A stretch of 64,000 bases of DNA from an uncultured Pelagibacteraceae bacterium (lineage in GTDB: Bacteria; Pseudomonadota; Alphaproteobacteria; Pelagibacterales; Pelagibacteraceae). Numbering within the stretch: position 1 is the stretch's first letter; each line of letters starts with the position of its first letter. The notes beneath the pieces were generated by a model that made no database searches, was not told where the DNA came from, and saw only the letters and a program-made list of their open reading frames with translations. The DNA is taken from NCBI GenBank assembly GCA_902584995.1, contig CACICF010000004.1, forward strand, positions 13,960 through 77,959, read 5' to 3'. Both the position numbers and the translations under genes were made by a program. Of this stretch, positions 33,301 through 64,000 are shown piece by piece.

Positions 33301-36295
33301 TTATCCTCTTATTTTCTTTATCTAGAAAAACAGAGTCAGAAACTGTTACATTTATATTTTTATTTTCCATTGGCACAATAAGTTTTTGGCCATTCATTTT
33401 CTTTCCACTTTTTACGACAGCAAGTGCAATTGATTTATTTAAATTTGGGCTAAAGTAACTCGATGTTACATGCCCAATCATTTCTATGGGTTTTTTGCTT
33501 ATATCAGAAACAATCTGAGCTCCTTCTTCTAATATTTCATTTGGATCATCTGTAAGTAATCCTACAAGTTGTTTTCTATCTTCTCTAATAGTATCACTTC
33601 TATAAAGAGATCTTTTTCCAATAAAATCGTATTTTTTTTTGCTAACTATCCAGTCCATTTGAAGGTCAATTGGCGTCATAGTTCCATCTGTATCTTGACC
33701 AACAATAATAAAACCTTTTTCAGCTCTTAATAAATGCATTGTTTCTGTTCCGTAAGGTGTAATTTTAAATTCTTTTCCTGCCTCAATGCATTTTTCCCAT
33801 AACGATTTTCCGTATTTTGACTCTATATTAATTTCATAACTAAGTTCACCAGTAAAACTTATTCTCATTATTCTACAATTAATCTCATCAATTTTGGCAT
33901 TTTGGTAAGACATATGTGGAAAAGTCTCATCACTAAAATCTTTATCAGGAAATATTTTGGTTAATATTTTTTTAGAGTTAGGACCACATATACTTGCTGT
34001 CGAGTAGTGGTCGGTGACTGAAGTTAAATAAACATCTAATTCAGGCCACTCAGTTTGTAAATAATCTTCAAGTTTTGAAAGAACATTCGCTGCTCCTCCT
34101 GTTGTTGTAGTCATCAAGTAATGATTTTCACCTAATCTTGTCGTAACACCATCATCATAAACCATTCCATCTTCATTTAACATCAATCCATATCTGCATT
34201 TTCCAATTCCTAATTTTGACCATGCATTTGTGTAAACTCTATTTAAAAATTCAGATGCGTCAGTTCCTTGAATATCTATTTTTCCAAGTGTAGAAGCATC
34301 TAAAATTCCTGCACTATCTCTAGCTGCCTTACTTTCTCTTTGAACAGCATCATGAAGATCTTCGTCATCAATAGGGTAGTACCAAGGTCTTTTCCATTGT
34401 CCAACATTTTCGAATTTAGCATTATTTTGAATATGCCATTCATGAATTGACGTTTTTCTAATTATATCAAAAAATTTACCTACACTTCTTCCAACTATTG
34501 ACCCAAAAGTTAATGGGGTAAACGGCGGTCGAAATGTTGTTGTTCCTAATGTACCCATTTTAACACCAGCTGTATCTGCAATAATTCCCAATGCATGCAT
34601 GTTTGATAGTTTGCCCTGATCAGTCGCCATACCAGTTGTTGTGTAACGTTTTACATGTTCAATAGATTTAAAACCTTCCCTAAGCGCAAGTTTTATATCT
34701 TTTGCAGTAGAGTCATTTTGAAAATCAATAAAAGATTTACATTTACCTTCTGATATATAATTTGGTAGTAGCCATAAATTTCTTTTATCTAATTCTTTTG
34801 AGTTTAGTATAGAAGTATTGTCAAATTCAGTTTCGCTGACCTTCAAAAAATTCTTTACCTTTTTATTTGTATTATTAATTATTTCTTCAAGTTCAAAGTC
34901 ACCATTACATGAACCAACATTAATATGATTTTCGTCAATTTCTTTTGGTATAAAAGTTTGATCAATTTCTCTAAAATCTAACTTTCCACCAGATTGTGTA
35001 TGCATGTGAACCATTGGTGTCCAACCACCACTTAGTGCTAAGCAATCACAATTTATTCTATTTTTATCTCCAACAACATTTGATCCATCTTCTGATAAAT
35101 TCATTATCTCAATAGAATTTATTTTTTTATGACCAAAAGTGTTAACTACTGTTGAGTTCCAATAGATTTTAACTCCAAGTTTTTCAGCATTTTTTACAAT
35201 TTTTGAATTAGATTTTTTTCTTATATCTATCATTTCGACAGATATTCCTTTTTCTTTCAAGGAAACAGCCGTTTCATAAGCGCTATCATTATTAGTAAAT
35301 ATCACGTTATTAAATCCACAAGACACACCATAAAAGTCTAAATATTTTTTAACGGAGTTAGAAAGCATTATTCCTGGTCTATCATTATTATTAAATACAA
35401 GGGGTCTTTCTATAGCACCAGTTGCTACTATTACTTTATCAGCTCTGATTTTCCATAATCTCTGTCTGATGCCACCATTTCTTTTATCCAATGGTAGATG
35501 GTCTGAAATATTTTCTTTTGCTAAGAGGTAATTATAACTATGATAAGCTGCTAAGCTTGTTCTAGTTTTGATTGTTAAATTATCTAATTTTTTAAGTTCT
35601 GCTATCTCCTCATCTATCCATGCACCTGAATATTTATCATTAATTTTATAATTTTCATTCTTTTGAAATATTGTTGATCCTCCAAGAATATTTTTATCTT
35701 CAATCAATATTGTTTTTAAATTATTTTTAGCAGAAATTTTTGATGCTATAATTCCAGAAATACCACCACCTATAATTAATACATCACAATGAACATGCTT
35801 ATGGTCATACAATTCAGGATCAGGTTTTGTTGGTGATTTCCCTAGTCCTGCAGACCATCTTATCAACGGTTCATAAATTTTTTTCCAGAAACTTTTAGGC
35901 CACATAAAAGTCTTATAATAAAAACCTGCAGGTATAAATGGAGATATAAGATTGTTAATTCCTCCTATATCAAAATTAACACTGGGCCAACAATTTTGAC
36001 TTGAGGCTTTTAAACCTTCATACAATTCAATTTCTGTAGCTCTAACATTAGGTTCTGTTAAATTTGTATCTTCGTTTATTTGGCATATCGCATTAGGTTC
36101 TTCGGATCCACAAGACATTATTCCTCTTGGTCGGTGATATTTAAAGCTTCTACCAACTAAATGAACTCCATTTGAAAGTAGGGCAGATGCCAAAGTATCA
36201 CCTTCAAAACCGTGATAAGATTTTCCATCAAAATCAAATGAAACTGTTTTAGTTTGATCTACGTGTTTCGTCTTATTAACTCTATATTTTGTCAT
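33293..36295 (-). CDS. soxA: Sarcosine oxidase alpha subunit
   Basis: GDTLASALL, RSFKYHRPRG, KRYTTTGMATDQGK, GcvT-like C-terminus. Confidence 0.96.
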   Translation of the reverse strand: MTKYRVNKTKHVDQTKTVSFDFDGKSYHGFEGDTLASALLSNGVHLVGRSFKYHRPRGIMSCGSEEPNAICQINEDTNLTEPNVRATEIELYEGLKASSQNCWPSVNFDIGGINNLISPFIPAGFYYKTFMWPKSFWKKIYEPLIRWSAGLGKSPTKPDPELYDHKHVHCDVLIIGGGISGIIASKISAKNNLKTILIEDKNILGGSTIFQKNENYKINDKYSGAWIDEEIAELKKLDNLTIKTRTSLAAYHSYNYLLAKENISDHLPLDKRNGGIRQRLWKIRADKVIVATGAIERPLVFNNNDRPGIMLSNSVKKYLDFYGVSCGFNNVIFTNNDSAYETAVSLKEKGISVEMIDIRKKSNSKIVKNAEKLGVKIYWNSTVVNTFGHKKINSIEIMNLSEDGSNVVGDKNRINCDCLALSGGWTPMVHMHTQSGGKLDFREIDQTFIPKEIDENHINVGSCNGDFELEEIINNTNKKVKNFLKVSETEFDNTSILNSKELDKRNLWLLPNYISEGKCKSFIDFQNDSTAKDIKLALREGFKSIEHVKRYTTTGMATDQGKLSNMHALGIIADTAGVKMGTLGTTTFRPPFTPLTFGSIVGRSVGKFFDIIRKTSIHEWHIQNNAKFENVGQWKRPWYYPIDDEDLHDAVQRESKAARDSAGILDASTLGKIDIQGTDASEFLNRVYTNAWSKLGIGKCRYGLMLNEDGMVYDDGVTTRLGENHYLMTTTTGGAANVLSKLEDYLQTEWPELDVYLTSVTDHYSTASICGPNSKKILTKIFPDKDFSDETFPHMSYQNAKIDEINCRIMRISFTGELSYEINIESKYGKSLWEKCIEAGKEFKITPYGTETMHLLRAEKGFIIVGQDTDGTMTPIDLQMDWIVSKKKYDFIGKRSLYRSDTIREDRKQLVGLLTDDPNEILEEGAQIVSDISKKPIEMIGHVTSSYFSPNLNKSIALAVVKSGKKMNGQKLIVPMENKNINVTVSDSVFLDKENKRINA

Positions 36296-37888: not shown

Positions 37889-37983
37889 GGAAGGATGGGT
37901 GAGCTGGTTGAAACCAGCGGTTTGCTAAACCGCCGTACGCTTGAAAAGGTGTACCGAGGGTTCGAATCCCTCTCCTTCCGCCA
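37889..37983 (+). tRNA. tRNA-Ser(GCT)
   Basis: Acceptor stem GGAAGGA/TCCTTCC plus GCCA, anticodon arm GCGGT-TT-GCT-AA-ACCGC, long variable arm, T-loop GGTTCGAATCC. Confidence 0.97.
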
Positions 37984-58191: not shown

Positions 58192-58476
58192 ATGATATAT
58201 TATGTATATTTGATTTTATCAAAAAAAAATAATAACTATATATCTTACGTTGGATATACTAATAATATTAAAAAAAGATTAGAACTCCACAATAAATCAA
58301 AAGGAGCAAAATTTACAAAAGGACGGACTTGGATTGTAATTTATTTTAAAAAATATAGAAATAAAACTACTGCTATGAAAGAAGAATTTAAGCTTAAAAA
58401 AAATTATAAGTTGAGGAATAAAATAAAAGAAGAATATTTAGAGAAAAATGAAAATTGCAATATTACTTCCTTTTAA
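58192..58476 (+). CDS. Small GIY-YIG nuclease (YhbQ/UPF0213-like)
   Basis: YYVY...YVGYTNNIKKRLELHN..KGAKFT, AMKEE. Confidence 0.88.
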   Translation: MIYYVYLILSKKNNNYISYVGYTNNIKKRLELHNKSKGAKFTKGRTWIVIYFKKYRNKTTAMKEEFKLKKNYKLRNKIKEEYLEKNENCNITSF

Positions 58477-60562
58477 AGAAGATTATTCACCTAAATATTC
58501 AGGTGCAGTTTCTATACATGTTTCTAACACATTAAAATTTTCAAAATTTAAAAATTCAATAACTGTGTACGGAAACACAAATAAAAAAAAATATTTATCA
58601 AATAATTTCAAAAATATTCAGGTTAGTTCAAATATTTTATTTAGTAATAACAAAAAATATTTACAAAAATTTGTTTCATTAAATATAAATAATAATCCAG
58701 ATATTGTTGAAATACATAATAGACCATCTTATGTTAAAACAATTAAAAATAATCTTAAATCAAAGATTATTTTATATTTTCATAATAATCCTATTACTAT
58801 TTCTGGGTCTAAATCTAAGAATGATCGAATAAATCTACTGGAAAAATGTGAATATATTTTTTTTAATAGCCAGTGGACAAAGAATCAATTTTTTAAAGAA
58901 ATAAATGAGGATGATTACCCATTGAAATATGGTGTTTGTTATCAGTCAACAAAACGTATAAAAGTAAATATAAATAAAAAAAAACAAATAATATCATTTG
59001 TTGGTAAATTAAATTCTGCAAAAGGTTATGATATTTTTGGTCAATCAATTTTAAGAATACTTAATGAATACAAAGATTGGAAGTCCATTGTTGTTGGAGA
59101 CGAGCCTAGGGAAAAACATATATTTAAGCATAAAAATCTAAAAATATACAATTTTAAAGAAAATTCTTATGTATTAAATCTTCTTAAAAAAACAAGTATA
59201 TTTGTTGCTTGTTCTCGTTGGGAGGAACCATTTGGAAGATCAAGCTTAGAAGCCAGTAGTTTAGGATGTGCAACAATTATTACAAATAGAGGAGGTCTAT
59301 TAGAAACAACAAAATACCCTATTATAATTAATAAATTAGATTCGAAAATATTATACAATCAGATAAAAAAATTAATAGATAATCCAAATATTCGAAAGAG
59401 GTATCAGAGTTTAAATTATAAGTCATTTTTTTTAACTCACGGATATGTTTCAAAAATAATTGATAAAGTAAGAAATAATATTGTATCTAATTTAAAAATT
59501 AATAAATTTAATATTAATAGAAATGCAAAATTAAAAATTATTCACATTACAAATTTTAATCAAAGATATTATGGAAGACTCCAATACAATACTGGTATAA
59601 GACTAAATAACGGACTTATTAGACTTGGTCACAATGTAATAAGTTTGTCAGACAGAGATATTATAAATTCATCTAAATCCTTTAGAGATCCCTCAGGTGC
59701 AAAATATCTCAACAATTTAATTTCTGAAACAATCACAAACTTTAACCCTGATTTATTAATACTTGGTCATGCTGATAAAGTAGATAAACAAATGTTATTA
59801 GGCGCTAGAGCAAAAAAAAAACATCTGACAATATCCCAATGGTTTTTAGATCCATTAACTAAAAAAGGCCCTGATTACATAAAGAATAAATCCAGAATTC
59901 TTGATAAGTTAGATGCAATGGACGCATCATTCACAACTACAGATCCTAAATCACTAGACTTTAAAATAAATAACTCCTTTTATATGCCCAATCCATGTGA
60001 TCAGTCATTAGATAATCTAAAAAATTTTAGACATAATCCAAAAAATGATATTTTTTATGCGATAAGCCATGGTGTACATAGAGGCGTTCTAAGAACAGGA
60101 AAAAAAGACGAGCGAGAAATTTTTATAACTAAGTTAAAACAAAAATGTAAAAATGTAATTTTTGATACTTATGGTATGTTTGGTAAACAGCCAATATGGG
60201 GTGAAAATTTTTTAACTAAATTATCGAATTCAAAAATGGGACTTAACCTAAGTAGAGGAAAACCAATAAAATATTATAGTAGTGATAGAATTGCTCAACT
60301 AATGGGCAATGGTCTTTTGACGTTTATTGACACCAAAACTTGTTATAATGATTTTTTTAGAAATGATGAAATGATATTTTACACCAATATAGAGGATTTA
60401 ACCGAAAAGATATATAAATATAAAAAAGATGATGTACTAAGAAAGAAAATTGCAAAAAAAGGTAACCTCAAATATCACAAGTTTTTTAATTCCAACATAG
60501 TTGCAAAATTTATAATTGATAAGTCTATTGGTATAAAATCAAAATTTTATTGGGAAAAATAG
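58448..60562 (+). CDS. Two-module glycosyltransferase (GT4 plus a second GT-B module, CgeB/YkvP-like)
   Basis: N-half FVGKLNSAKG, EEPFGRSSLEA; C-half SKMGLNL, YSSDR, IAKKG. Confidence 0.8.
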   Translation: MKIAILLPFKEDYSPKYSGAVSIHVSNTLKFSKFKNSITVYGNTNKKKYLSNNFKNIQVSSNILFSNNKKYLQKFVSLNINNNPDIVEIHNRPSYVKTIKNNLKSKIILYFHNNPITISGSKSKNDRINLLEKCEYIFFNSQWTKNQFFKEINEDDYPLKYGVCYQSTKRIKVNINKKKQIISFVGKLNSAKGYDIFGQSILRILNEYKDWKSIVVGDEPREKHIFKHKNLKIYNFKENSYVLNLLKKTSIFVACSRWEEPFGRSSLEASSLGCATIITNRGGLLETTKYPIIINKLDSKILYNQIKKLIDNPNIRKRYQSLNYKSFFLTHGYVSKIIDKVRNNIVSNLKINKFNINRNAKLKIIHITNFNQRYYGRLQYNTGIRLNNGLIRLGHNVISLSDRDIINSSKSFRDPSGAKYLNNLISETITNFNPDLLILGHADKVDKQMLLGARAKKKHLTISQWFLDPLTKKGPDYIKNKSRILDKLDAMDASFTTTDPKSLDFKINNSFYMPNPCDQSLDNLKNFRHNPKNDIFYAISHGVHRGVLRTGKKDEREIFITKLKQKCKNVIFDTYGMFGKQPIWGENFLTKLSNSKMGLNLSRGKPIKYYSSDRIAQLMGNGLLTFIDTKTCYNDFFRNDEMIFYTNIEDLTEKIYKYKKDDVLRKKIAKKGNLKYHKFFNSNIVAKFIIDKSIGIKSKFYWEK

Positions 60563-60569
60563 TAATAAA

Positions 60570-61577
60570 GTGGGAAAAGTATTGATACTGAAAAACGATA
60601 GAGTAGGTGACTTTATTACATCTATTAAATCCATAAATTTAATTCTTAATAAACATAGAAGTCAAGAAATAATAATTTTTTTGTCTAAAATTAATTACAA
60701 ATTTAATTTTATATTCTCAGATCTAAAATTTAATATATTTAATTATGATCTTAAGTTTTTAGAAAAAATAAAAATAATTTTTTATCTTTTTATAAATAAT
60801 GTGTCTGATGTATATATTTTGGCACCAAAAAACTTTTATTATTACCTTCCATTAATTTTCAGAAACATACGTTTTCATGCAATATGTATAGAGTCTGAAA
60901 AAAGTAGACCCTCCAAATTTTTAAGAAAATTTTTATACAAAAAGGGTACGTTATTTAGATCAAATAAAAAAAAAATCTTATCAGTATACAAAGTTTTAGA
61001 AAACCTAATTGATTATAATGAAAAGACCAAAAACTTTGTTAAATTGGAATTTGAAAAATTTGATTTTTTTAAATTTCCAAAAAATTCAACTTATTTTCAT
61101 TATAAACATAATCTTTTTCATGATAAACTCACCTGGTCTAATAATGAAATTAAAGAATTTATTAATTTTTTAGCAAAAAAAAGAACTAATATTGTATTTT
61201 CATCAGAACTTGAAAATATGGAAAAAAATGATTTTTTTTATAATAATTTTAACAGTTATGATTTCAAAAATAAATTATATAATAAAGTTAATAATAAAAA
61301 CATTTTATTTCTTAAAGATCTTGATGGCAAAAATTTAGTTCATTCAATTTATTTAAGTGATGAAGTTATTGCACCTGAAAGTGGCATCACTCACATTGGA
61401 AGTTTTTTGAATAAAAAAACTCTAGCCTTAATGTTTTTTAATTTTTCTAATAAAGATGATATATTCAAACAAATTATAGCTATAAAGGAATGGGCCCCTT
61501 TAAATGATTTTAAATTTACAATACTAAAAAAAGATCTTTTTAAAACTATCAATAAATTATCGAACATCATAAAATGA
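60570..61577 (+). CDS. GT9 (heptosyltransferase-like) glycosyltransferase
   Basis: LILKNDRVGD N-terminus, ESGITHI (DSG..H-like), TLALM. Confidence 0.7.
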   Translation: MGKVLILKNDRVGDFITSIKSINLILNKHRSQEIIIFLSKINYKFNFIFSDLKFNIFNYDLKFLEKIKIIFYLFINNVSDVYILAPKNFYYYLPLIFRNIRFHAICIESEKSRPSKFLRKFLYKKGTLFRSNKKKILSVYKVLENLIDYNEKTKNFVKLEFEKFDFFKFPKNSTYFHYKHNLFHDKLTWSNNEIKEFINFLAKKRTNIVFSSELENMEKNDFFYNNFNSYDFKNKLYNKVNNKNILFLKDLDGKNLVHSIYLSDEVIAPESGITHIGSFLNKKTLALMFFNFSNKDDIFKQIIAIKEWAPLNDFKFTILKKDLFKTINKLSNIIK

Positions 61578-62500
61578 ATAAAAAAATTGTTGTAGAAATT
61601 GCTGAAGGATTAGGAAATCAGATGTTTATGTATGCACATGCATATTCACTAGCAAAAAAATTAAATTATCAATTAGAAATTGACAATAAAAGTGGTTACT
61701 CAAGGAAAAAAAATCAATTAAGAGATCATCAAATATATTCTCTAGATAAATTTAATATTTCACAAAATATTACCTCAAGTGATAACATCTATGATAATGC
61801 GTTTAAGAGATTAAAAAAAAAAATTGAAATTTTTATATATAAATTTTTAAAAAAAAAAAAATTTATAATTGAAAAAAAAATAATATCTCATGGAAAAAAA
61901 ATTCCTCAACCTTATATTATTAATGACAGTGATCATTTATCTAATTTAATTTATGTTCAAGGAAATTTTGAAAATTATAATTATTTTAAAAACTTAAGAG
62001 AAGATTTAATTCAAATTTTCAAACCTCTCGATATATTTATTAAAAGACAAGATGAGCTAATTAATAAATTAACAAATACTAATAGTGTTTCTATTCACAT
62101 CAGACAAAATAGGTTTTCAGATCAAAAAAACCTCAAAACGAATATAAATAAATTACATAAATCTAATGAATTCTCTAATGAAGTAATTACATATATTAAA
62201 AATGCAGAGCAATTTTTTAGAAAAAAATTAACTAATCCTGTTTTTTTTATTTGGTCAAATGATTTTGCGGGTTTAGATAAATATTTTAGTAAAGAAAAAT
62301 ATAATTTTATTACCGATAATGACTTAATTAATGATTTTAACTTATTTTCTTATGCTAAACATTTCATTGTAAGTCCTTCAACATTTCATTGGTGGGGAGC
62401 ATACTTAAATGAAAATCCAGATAAGATTTGCATCAGACCAAAAAATATAAATCCTTCTAATAATACAGGTTTTTGGCCTTTAAATTGGATTGCGATTTAA
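61574..62500 (+). CDS. GT11 alpha-1,2-fucosyltransferase-like protein
   Basis: GLGNQMF, QGNF, VSIHIR, IWSND, STFHWWGAYL, WIAI. Confidence 0.85.
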   Translation: MNKKIVVEIAEGLGNQMFMYAHAYSLAKKLNYQLEIDNKSGYSRKKNQLRDHQIYSLDKFNISQNITSSDNIYDNAFKRLKKKIEIFIYKFLKKKKFIIEKKIISHGKKIPQPYIINDSDHLSNLIYVQGNFENYNYFKNLREDLIQIFKPLDIFIKRQDELINKLTNTNSVSIHIRQNRFSDQKNLKTNINKLHKSNEFSNEVITYIKNAEQFFRKKLTNPVFFIWSNDFAGLDKYFSKEKYNFITDNDLINDFNLFSYAKHFIVSPSTFHWWGAYLNENPDKICIRPKNINPSNNTGFWPLNWIAI

Positions 62501-62515
62501 TGTTTGCTATTATTC

Positions 62516-63469
62516 CTAGATTTTAACTTTATTTAAAGCATTATTTTTAAAAATATTTGCTTCTTTAATATATCTTCTTACCATTTGAGTTGTTTTGTGT
62601 CCTGTCATTGCCATAATACTTCTTTCATCAGCCCCAGACTCTGCAGCAACTGTTGCAAATCCAGATCTTAAACTATGACCTGCATAATTTTTATTTTCAA
62701 CTCCTGCTAAATTTAAGTATTCTTTCATTAATAACACCACTGATTGATCATTTAATCTTTTGTCAGTTAGTGATAATCCTTTAGAAAATCTTCTAAAAAT
62801 TGGTCCAGATTTAATTTTAGAAATTTCTAACCATTTTTTAAGATTTACTATCGGGCAATAAGTTTCATTGGTGAAGTAGGGCAGTCCTTTAATCATCCCT
62901 TCGCCTAATTGATCGGTTTTTGATCTTTTAATAATGATTTTGAGACCCTCTGGTACAAATTCTAAATCTTCATAATTAATTGAAATTAGTTCATTTCGTC
63001 TAAATCCCCCTGCAAAACCTATTAGAATGATTGACTTATCTCTAAACTTTTTAATATCCCTAATTTTTTGTTTATCTATTACATTAATTATAGATTTTAA
63101 ATTATTGATTAATAAAGGTTTTTTTCCTTCTTGAATACTTCCTTTTAATCTTCTTATTCCCATTAAGTTTTCAACAATGATTGGGTGTTTTGTATCTAGA
63201 TAATGACCTTTAAGTTTATGGACCATGCTAATTGATACTAACCTTCTTCTTAAAGTACTTATTTTTGAACATTTAGATAAGTGAGTAAGGTATAATGAAA
63301 CTATTTTAGGTTCTGATGGTAATGAACTTAGACCATGTTTAACGCAAAAAGCTCCAAAATCTTTAAAGTCTGATTTATAAGCTCTTAAGGTGTTGTCTGC
63401 TTTAGATCTTTTAAGGTTATTTAGAGTTGCCTCATGAAGCGATTTTAAATCAGTTGTAAGTTCACTCAT
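62516..63469 (-). CDS. Cre-like site-specific tyrosine recombinase
   Basis: N-terminal NTLRAY...STLRRRL domain; catalytic set in GFRRNE (R), RSKTDQ (K), GHSLR (HxxR), TGH (H) and RRY (Y). Confidence 0.92.
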   Translation of the reverse strand: MSELTTDLKSLHEATLNNLKRSKADNTLRAYKSDFKDFGAFCVKHGLSSLPSEPKIVSLYLTHLSKCSKISTLRRRLVSISMVHKLKGHYLDTKHPIIVENLMGIRRLKGSIQEGKKPLLINNLKSIINVIDKQKIRDIKKFRDKSIILIGFAGGFRRNELISINYEDLEFVPEGLKIIIKRSKTDQLGEGMIKGLPYFTNETYCPIVNLKKWLEISKIKSGPIFRRFSKGLSLTDKRLNDQSVVLLMKEYLNLAGVENKNYAGHSLRSGFATVAAESGADERSIMAMTGHKTTQMVRRYIKEANIFKNNALNKVKI

Positions 63470-63472
63470 AAA

Positions 63473-63507
63473 ATTACTATTGATAACAATTAATTATCAC
63501 TAGTAAT
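63473..63507. repeat. lox-like inverted repeat (14-7-14), candidate recombination site
   Basis: ATTACTATTGATAA-caattaa-TTATCACTAGTAAT; arms 13/14 complementary; 3 nt upstream of the recombinase ATG. Confidence 0.8.
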
Positions 63508-63531
63508 AATATAACTCATTTTACATGTCAA
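63503..63531 (-). promoter_or_regulatory. Putative recombinase promoter
   Basis: Minus strand TTGACA (63531-26), 17-nt spacer, TATTAC (63508-03); overlaps the distal arm of the lox-like repeat. Confidence 0.55.
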
Positions 63532-63554
63532 GCATTTAATGTAAAAGATCTTCA

Positions 63555-63719
63555 ATGCCTAAATATGTAATTATTGGTCTTATTGTAGTTATTGGAACGT
63601 TCCTAATTATGAATTACTGGCCAAAACTAAAAGAACAAACAAGAAATCGAATTTTAATGGTTATTTTTGGCATATTTTTCATAAGTATATTTGTTCTGTT
63701 ATTTCTATTAATGTTTTGA
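63555..63719 (+). CDS. Small two-TM hypothetical membrane protein (54 aa; not in the ORF track)
   Basis: Hand translation MPKYVIIGLIVVIGTFLIMNYWPKLKEQTRNRILMVIFGIFFISIFVLLFLLMF*; fills the gap in an otherwise gap-free region. Confidence 0.7.
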   Translation: MPKYVIIGLIVVIGTFLIMNYWPKLKEQTRNRILMVIFGIFFISIFVLLFLLMF

Positions 63720-63725
63720 GGTAAA

Positions 63726-64000
63726 TTGATCGATATTTTAAGCATTCTTGTTGCTGGTATATTTTCTTGCATAATTTTAGATATTCTCGGTTATTTGCTT
63801 AAATTATTAGGTGTTCCTGAGCCATCCTGGGGAATTGTTGGTAGGTGGACCTATTATATGCTTAAAAATGGATCCTTTAACAATCCAAATATAGCACAAA
63901 TGCAAACTATTAAATATGAGGTCTTATTGGGTTGGATTTTTCACTACTACGTATCAATTTGTTGGGCTGTGATATATTATTTTTTCTTTATACAAATAGG
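63726..64000 (+). CDS. DUF2938-like membrane protein (3'-truncated by the window edge)
   Basis: TTG start after GAGGT; hand translation includes D..G...SWGIVGRW and LGWIFHY; open to the window end. Confidence 0.7.
   Translation, partial: MIDILSILVAGIFSCIILDILGYLLKLLGVPEPSWGIVGRWTYYMLKNGSFNNPNIAQMQTIKYEVLLGWIFHYYVSICWAVIYYFFFIQI

Follow-up and report, generated by a model that had tools for sequence, protein, structure and literature searches.

What is the role of the single tyrosine recombinase gene that SAR11 bacteria carry in their chromosome, directly behind an inverted repeat placed in the gene's own promoter region? The question is raised by a 64,000-nt stretch of DNA from an uncultured Pelagibacteraceae bacterium (contig CACICF010000004.1; hereafter the window), in which the recombinase gene lies at 62516-63469 on the minus strand and the repeat just upstream of it, at 63473-63507. 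Recombination is heavy in SAR11, the ocean's most abundant group of bacteria. Carnoy and Roten reported Pelagibacter ubique to be without dif/Xer, and their study treats this as proof that small genomes can do without the function (PMC2731167). In a 2026 preprint on Arctic Pelagibacterales the names XerC and XerD are used as the annotation pipeline gave them, and our literature searches found no paper describing the SAR11 system. Our data indicate instead that the whole family has swapped XerCD/dif for a compact module of one gene and one site, apparently of plasmid origin. We consider it quite likely that this module is a chromosome dimer-resolution system of the dif/Xer type with a single recombinase, made of a Cre-shaped, plasmid-derived enzyme and its own target site. 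A second role of the same site in self-repression is likely as well. The observations on which we build this reading are the anatomy of the locus, its conservation, its single copy, its position at the terminus, the absence of XerC and XerD, and the copying of the site by phages.

Anatomy and conservation of the gene and its site

The recombinase gene encodes 317 aa from an ATG start. The product matches Pfam Phage_integrase (PF00589) at 6.9e-19, and its N-terminal part gives a weak match to a SAM-like domain. An earlier note, made from the letters of the window alone, had described an intact catalytic set and Cre-like motifs. Both are present: the catalytic residues are R157, K184, H265, R268, H291 and Y300, whose columns are invariant in an alignment of 42 family members, and the motifs are RSKTD, GHSLRSG and MTGH..RRYI. 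The AlphaFold model of the protein (predicted local distance difference test, pLDDT, 93.8) has a five-helix N-terminal domain. This gene is the sole PF00589 match in the window's genome (1.09 Mb in 32 contigs, 80% complete). A complete relative likewise contains a single tyrosine recombinase, which is the orthologue. RecA and FtsK, the latter including its gamma domain, are also encoded.

Read along the gene strand, the upstream region consists of a predicted -35 hexamer TTGACA (63531-63526), 17 nt, a predicted -10 hexamer TATTAC (63508-63503), the inverted repeat and the ATG. The repeat, our candidate dif-like recombination site, has no strand of its own and the 14-7-14 layout given in the earlier note: two 14-nt arms with one mismatch, separated from the ATG by 3 nt, and reading ATTACTAGTGATAA - TTAATTG - TTATCAATAGTAAT on the gene strand. 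The arm beside the ATG (TTATCAATAGTAAT, 63473-63486) is the better conserved of the two among 25 orthologous sites compared. The asymmetric 7-nt spacer TTAATTG (63487-63493) is replaced by TTAATGG, TTAAAGG or TTTATTG in other lineages. The promoter-side arm (ATTACTAGTGATAA, 63494-63507) varies between genomes at positions 8-9, with no compensation in the other arm, and its outer part is overlapped by the -10 hexamer, an arrangement found in all genera. The -35 hexamer is identical in all orthologous loci read. The repeat has no second copy in the window, and 100 shuffles produced no match. The promoter scanner that we used demands a T at position 6 and therefore did not list the conserved TTGACA-17-TATTAC; its own proposal, TTTACA-16-TAAAAT, is weaker and not conserved, and was set aside.

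Conservation was surveyed in 200 genomes of the order that are at least 85% complete, 180 from the window's family and 20 from its sister family. One orthologue each was found in 166 of the 180; these are single-copy, 54-92% identical, and belong to the window's genus and five further genera. Comparing the regions upstream of orthologues, as the earlier note had proposed, revealed a site conserved in all six genera. Every orthologous locus read presents a TTGACA-17-TAtTAt promoter, followed directly by the site and then by the ATG. The inner arms and the spacer are nearly constant (CGATAA, then TTAAT[T/G]G, then TTATCG). The outer arms exist in two forms, ATTACTAnnGATAA and TTCCGATAA, and both arms change form together between lineages. 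The family consensus is TTCCGATAA-N7-TTATCGGAA. Owing to the uncompensated positions 8-9 of the promoter-side arm, most sites have a slight asymmetry. One subclade (L023 and L027; by frame length also G065, G066, G068 and G076) has a recombinase N-terminus about 12 aa longer; its start codon still lies close behind the site, and one of its loci has the spacer TTAAAGG.

The 17-nt core GATAATTWAWKGTTATC is present in 164 of the 180 family genomes, once per genome except for one with two, and in none of the 20 genomes of the sister family; as a control, the reversed pattern was hit 4 times in 201 genomes. The site is consistently located just upstream of the recombinase gene. The genome with two matches is a complete one (G113), where the additional match (C1:656,681-656,697) lies 70 kb from the true site, has a different spacer and is probably due to chance. 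That no second copy of the site exists, as the earlier note had judged by eye, agrees with a weight-matrix scan of a complete 1,343,202-bp genome: with a matrix built from 25 sites, the site scores 50.7 bits and the next-best place 13.6.

The replication terminus and the absence of XerC and XerD

Where does the site lie on the chromosome? Skew was analysed over the whole of the 1,343,202-bp genome (G013, the complete relative). Its cumulative GC-skew maximum is at 615,774, its AT-skew maximum at 620,847 and its purine-skew maximum at 620,768, while the GC-skew minimum is at 1,290,841 and dnaA at 1,198,936. The recombinase gene occupies 616,646-617,599 and the site 617,603-617,637, 1.8 kb from the whole-genome GC-skew peak. 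The chance that a random place falls within 3 kb of the skew peak is about 0.5%. Four more complete genomes, from four genera, were treated by computing skew over 200-kb intervals centred on the site, and the local GC-skew peak was 1.1, 2.1, 2.4 and 1.5 kb from it. Mapping against the GC-skew terminus, another check proposed in the earlier note, thus places the site at the terminus in five complete genomes. The contig of the window itself extends 12 kb beyond the site, too short for a skew switch, and two contigs of metagenome-assembled genomes (MAGs) that ended 8-19 kb past the locus were also set aside.

The DNA around the terminus of the complete relative also contains an oriented motif. 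GAGTAGG is its most strand-skewed 7-mer, with 54 copies on the leading against 8 on the lagging strand. The motif was derived from both replichores, leaving out the terminus region, and oligomers were ranked by ratio, since ranking by z-score returned mostly purine runs. In the region left out, GAGTAGG is directed rightwards as far as 586,756 and leftwards from 627,810 on (copies at 540,935-586,756 on the plus strand and at 627,810-664,788 on the minus strand), and the looser GAGNAGG reverses direction between 612,973 and 627,810. GAGTAGG, which we take to be similar to known FtsK-orienting motifs, is a candidate for the FtsK-orienting motif of SAR11.

The two families of the order differ in their Xer content. 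In the sister family the XerD model detects a XerD-like gene in all 20 genomes (308-326 bits) and a XerC-like gene in 19 (about 250 bits), whereas the recombinase orthologue and the site are found in none of the 20. In the 180 genomes of the window's family the XerD model scores at most about 90 bits, and no XerC- or XerD-like gene was found. Every top-scoring match in this family that was cross-checked by its coordinates proved to be the recombinase gene itself. The earlier note had suggested that the module could replace or supplement XerCD/dif. Replacement is what we find: the module stands in for XerCD and does not supplement it. The computational hallmarks of a dif-type site are present, namely one non-coding site per chromosome, a location at the GC-skew terminus, two inverted arms around a centre of 6-8 bp and a conserved chromosomal recombinase.

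The proposed mechanism is as follows. A pair of recombinase molecules would occupy the arms of each site. When RecA crossovers, odd in number, have left the sister chromosomes joined, FtsK would probably bring both site copies together at the division septum, where a tetramer would exchange strands across the 7-bp spacer and so yield two monomers. Because the site lies between the -10 hexamer and the ATG, the bound enzyme should also repress its own gene; by blocking this transcription it would keep the enzyme level low.

Relatives of the recombinase and copies of the site in phages

To which recombinases is the SAR11 enzyme related? The answer differs between fold and sequence. In a Foldseek search with the predicted structure, the top 30 matches in the PDB are all Cre or Tre, with template modelling (TM) scores of 0.76-0.82 and E-values down to 1e-14. 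The next folds are XerH (TM 0.69) and IntI (TM 0.63), compared with 0.80 for Cre, a ranking that may partly stem from the closed clamp conformation of the AlphaFold model. In sequence comparisons with solved structures the enzyme is about equally far from archaeal XerA (2.3e-8), XerD (2.4e-7), XerH (6.7e-5, 25 bits, phmmer against chain 5jjv) and Cre (5e-4). It scores below the curated cut-offs of XerD (TIGR02225, 68.2 against 329.6 bits), XerC (TIGR02224, 57.8 against 335.15), XerS (NF003462, 44.3 against 267) and archaeal XerA (NF040815, 64.3 against 220). Pairwise, it is 21% identical to Cre (E 5e-9) and 25% to SCre; for comparison, SCre and Cre are 32% identical (3e-44). A second recombinase encoded on the same Shewanella plasmid as SCre, with the motif RSKTDQ, is closer (31%, E 4e-46). 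The label "Cre-like" in the earlier note is therefore right for the fold and weak for the sequence, whose closer kin form a plasmid family.

This family is large. An exhaustive search retrieved 2,573 representatives below 1e-30, the non-SAR11 ones being 36-47% identical, and tblastn located the family on 2,230 plasmid records against only 9 phage records. The plasmid relatives are annotated "site-specific integrase" and share 35-44% identity among the 30 best listed; the RSKTDQ family as a whole is the closest by sequence, at 31-44% over the full length. Several members have a TTCGATAA-N6/7-TTATCGAA repeat, in general form (T)TCGATAA-N6/7-TTATCGA(A), upstream of their own genes. The carriers are a Sporomusa gene in prophage context, a Protochlamydia plasmid, an Aureimonas plasmid and the second recombinase of the Shewanella plasmid (in this order, repeats at L157:5941-5975, about 75 nt upstream of the gene in L171, in L172, and upstream of 2714 in L166). 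Of seven plasmid-borne relatives examined, four (L168-L170 and L173) lack such repeats upstream, and a Pusillimonas relative on metagenome contigs has no such site either. On the Pusillimonas-like contigs (L158-L160) this relative, 41% identical, adjoins a BREX operon (brxA, brxB, brxC and a methyltransferase). Since distant relatives keep the same repeats, the DNA specificity of the family seems to be very old. Some relatives have matching arms ahead of their own genes; gene and site thus travel together and seem to have entered the chromosome of the family's ancestor as a single module from a plasmid. Members of the RSKTDQ family reside on plasmids or in a prophage in many phyla, whereas in SAR11 the gene has become a fixed part of the chromosome, at its terminus.

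Several known systems share part of these properties. XerS/difSL of streptococci and lactococci and XerH/difH of Campylobacter and Helicobacter also use a single recombinase instead of XerC plus XerD (PMC2731167, PMC9765430). They too have the site at the terminus beside the recombinase gene, gene and site resembling one acquired module, and two imperfectly symmetric arms. The SAR11 protein differs from theirs in length (317 aa against 353-360) and falls outside both by sequence; its relatives are plasmid recombinases, its spacer is 7 bp and its site is placed between promoter and ATG. With Cre/loxP of phage P1 and SCre/SloxP of the Shewanella ANA-3 plasmid the SAR11 module shares a predicted Cre fold over the full length, a site upstream of the recombinase gene, long inverted arms around an asymmetric spacer, and probably an origin in a plasmid or plasmid-prophage dimer-resolution function. 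The likeness to SloxP that the earlier note had suggested is real: inner arms TCCGATA(A) are common to SloxP and the SAR11 site, and those of SloxM1 read TCCGATA/TATCGGA (PMC3082901). Unlike Cre, which has Trp at the second His/Trp position of the pairwise alignment, the SAR11 protein has His. Its site is 14-7-14 and not 13-8-13 as in loxP, and the module belongs to the chromosome, where it sits at the terminus and has been passed down vertically throughout a bacterial family. XerL/dif of the Legionellales, as described, offers a third comparison: a divergent single recombinase in a lineage formerly listed without dif/Xer, long uninterrupted inverted repeats as dif arms, and a mobile element with a site mimic (PMC9765430). 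XerL is longer, with its catalytic Tyr at 387-389, and is encoded more than 400 kb from dif in L. pneumophila (PMC9765430). Single-recombinase dif systems (XerS, XerH, XerA and XerL) are thus already known; what is new here is a separate lineage with a Cre-like fold in SAR11, which adds an independent case of XerCD replaced by one recombinase.

Copies of the site are also present in viruses. Scanning viral contigs of IMG/VR for the core gave 33 hits (L174-L206), 19 of which have both arms extended as in SAR11. Eleven hits without extended arms and three with one arm only were not counted; by a rough estimate, a collection this large should yield matches to a bare AT-rich 17-mer by chance. No gene resembling this recombinase was found on the available stretches of any of the 33 contigs. 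Three were annotated, and terminase subunits were present in all, an SU10-type portal in two and a scaffold protein in one; one portal is 82% identical to that of Pelagibacter phage HTVC106P. Three cultured pelagiphages have copies beside their terminase genes, usually two in tandem: HTVC100P (34,319-34,352), HTVC035P (35,829-35,863) and HTVC106P (35,412-35,437). The look-alikes, single or in tandem, lie just upstream of the small terminase gene. Within a tandem the two copies often differ: the TTCCGATAA form, which has the host spacer, is paired with a long-arm form whose spacer is 6 nt. The site region of HTVC100P has no blastn match in other phage records. The three phages are reported to lack integrases, and the HTVC010P-type subgroup I is described as strictly lytic (PMC8477408; 10.1101/2019.12.14.876532). 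As elements carrying mimics of the host dif are known for XerCD and XerL (PMC9765430), the phage copies independently support the site as a live recombination target.

We tentatively propose, as a possibility somewhat short of an even chance, that integrase-less pelagiphages of the HTVC010P-type subgroup I and the HTVC106P-type use the host terminus recombinase through their own copies of the site. The enzyme might circularise the injected phage genome or integrate it at the host site. Precedents for both are known: P1 circularises its injected genome with Cre/loxP, and integrative mobile elements exploiting Xer (IMEX) integrate at the host site. Phages of these two types are among the most abundant marine viruses. 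If the proposal is true, the dimer-resolution system of SAR11 would be a gateway for phage biology, and the lytic and lysogenic labels of these phages would be incomplete.

Alternative explanations and the flanks of the locus

Could the repeat be something other than a recombination site? One explanation is that it is only an operator, for the protein itself or for another repressor, and that the recombinase works at other places or no longer recombines DNA. Such an operator would account for the overlap with the -10 hexamer and for the filling of the gap to the ATG in every lineage, as well as for a site-to-promoter distance that is constant while the distance to the ATG ranges from 0 to 9 nt. 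Against it stand the six invariant catalytic residues and the lack of any other target in the genome; nor would an operator have cause to lie at the skew peak in five genomes or to be copied by phages without the gene. Two arms around a 7-bp spacer moreover form the layout of a recombination core, one that is kept in plasmid relatives, and self-repression is already part of the dimer-resolution reading. We therefore hold an operator alone to be improbable. An RNA hairpin in the 5' leader, controlling translation of the recombinase, would agree with the folding of the repeat region (-17 kcal/mol, z = -3.2) and with arms that change together among lineages. The conserved promoter, however, would put the start of transcription within the promoter-side arm, so that the RNA would not contain the full hairpin. 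The variation at positions 8-9 of that arm is uncompensated, the spacer is conserved although a loop does not need it, and phages keep the site away from any such gene. A leader hairpin is accordingly a very remote prospect.

The gene might otherwise be the integrase of a genomic island or of a decayed mobile element, with the repeat as its attachment site and neighbouring glycosyltransferase genes as cargo. Both flanks vary between strains, the 3' flank contains glycosyltransferases and a GIY-YIG gene, and relatives occur on plasmids and in a prophage. The locus nevertheless occupies the same place, in single copy, in nearly all genomes of six genera, and its site is an intact palindrome and not a hybrid junction. 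No second full or half site bounding variable DNA was found, an arrangement that, according to the earlier note, would have pointed to a mobile element. The integron integrase model reaches 24 bits against a cut-off of 265, and there is no tRNA target: the only tRNA of the window lies at 37889-37980, and no phage gene adjoins the locus, as the earlier note had also seen. An island integrase is about as improbable as a bare operator. No one of these explanations covers at once the phage copies, the complete catalytic set, the occurrence in single copy and the place at the terminus.

Several points weigh against a dimer-resolution system. Binding, strand exchange, FtsK dependence and self-repression are all inferred. 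A site inside the promoter also fits a plain self-repression operator. Synteny is strong in SAR11, so the five matches to the terminus are not fully independent, although the genomes cover four genera with protein identities down to 54%. One GAGNAGG copy (617,133) is wrongly oriented, 470 bp from the site. No phage integrated at the site was found: the portal search was positive in 2 of 401 family genomes, in one of which the match fills a 2.2-kb contig, while the match in the other was not placed relative to the site. Finally, 14 of the 180 family genomes have neither the gene, nor the site, nor any Xer-like gene. Gaps in the assemblies are the probable cause, given how often contigs break off at the locus; true loss is the alternative. 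In several MAGs the gene lies between a few hundred bases and about 1 kb from a contig end (G111:C10:26-976, G188:C14:283-1233 and G195:C35:234-1184).

A dimer-resolution module at this place would have practical consequences. It corrects the annotations "integrase" or "XerD" and marks the replication terminus in SAR11 assemblies. It also suggests a connection, so far overlooked, between SAR11 and its phages, and a small recombinase with a defined 35-bp site is a candidate orthogonal tool.

The extent of the conserved unit was visible in marine metagenome contigs aligned to 61500-64000. These data are contigs and not reads, and the joints that they list, short-sided and of low depth, were left unused. 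Summed depth is in the thousands over 62508-63515 and in the tens on either side, with a fall of about 100-fold at 62508 and at 63516, and loose contig ends occur at 62520-62523 and at 63532, just beyond the -35 hexamer. This pattern indicates that gene, site and promoter form a conserved unit between strain-variable flanks. Small contigs from RNA libraries cover 63279-63447, which is no proof of transcription. On the 3' side, between an H+-pyrophosphatase gene and the end of the recombinase gene, the window has a strain-variable 4.3-kb cassette (58192-62500, plus strand) outside the module, with a GIY-YIG gene, a group-1 glycosyltransferase, an unknown gene and a family-11 glycosyltransferase. 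This cassette is common to only 5 of 32 orthologous loci, whereas a gene about 1 kb beyond the site is common to 28 of the 32. The flank on the site side (63508-64400) contains a 54-aa membrane open reading frame and a DUF2938 gene, which are found in some genomes only.

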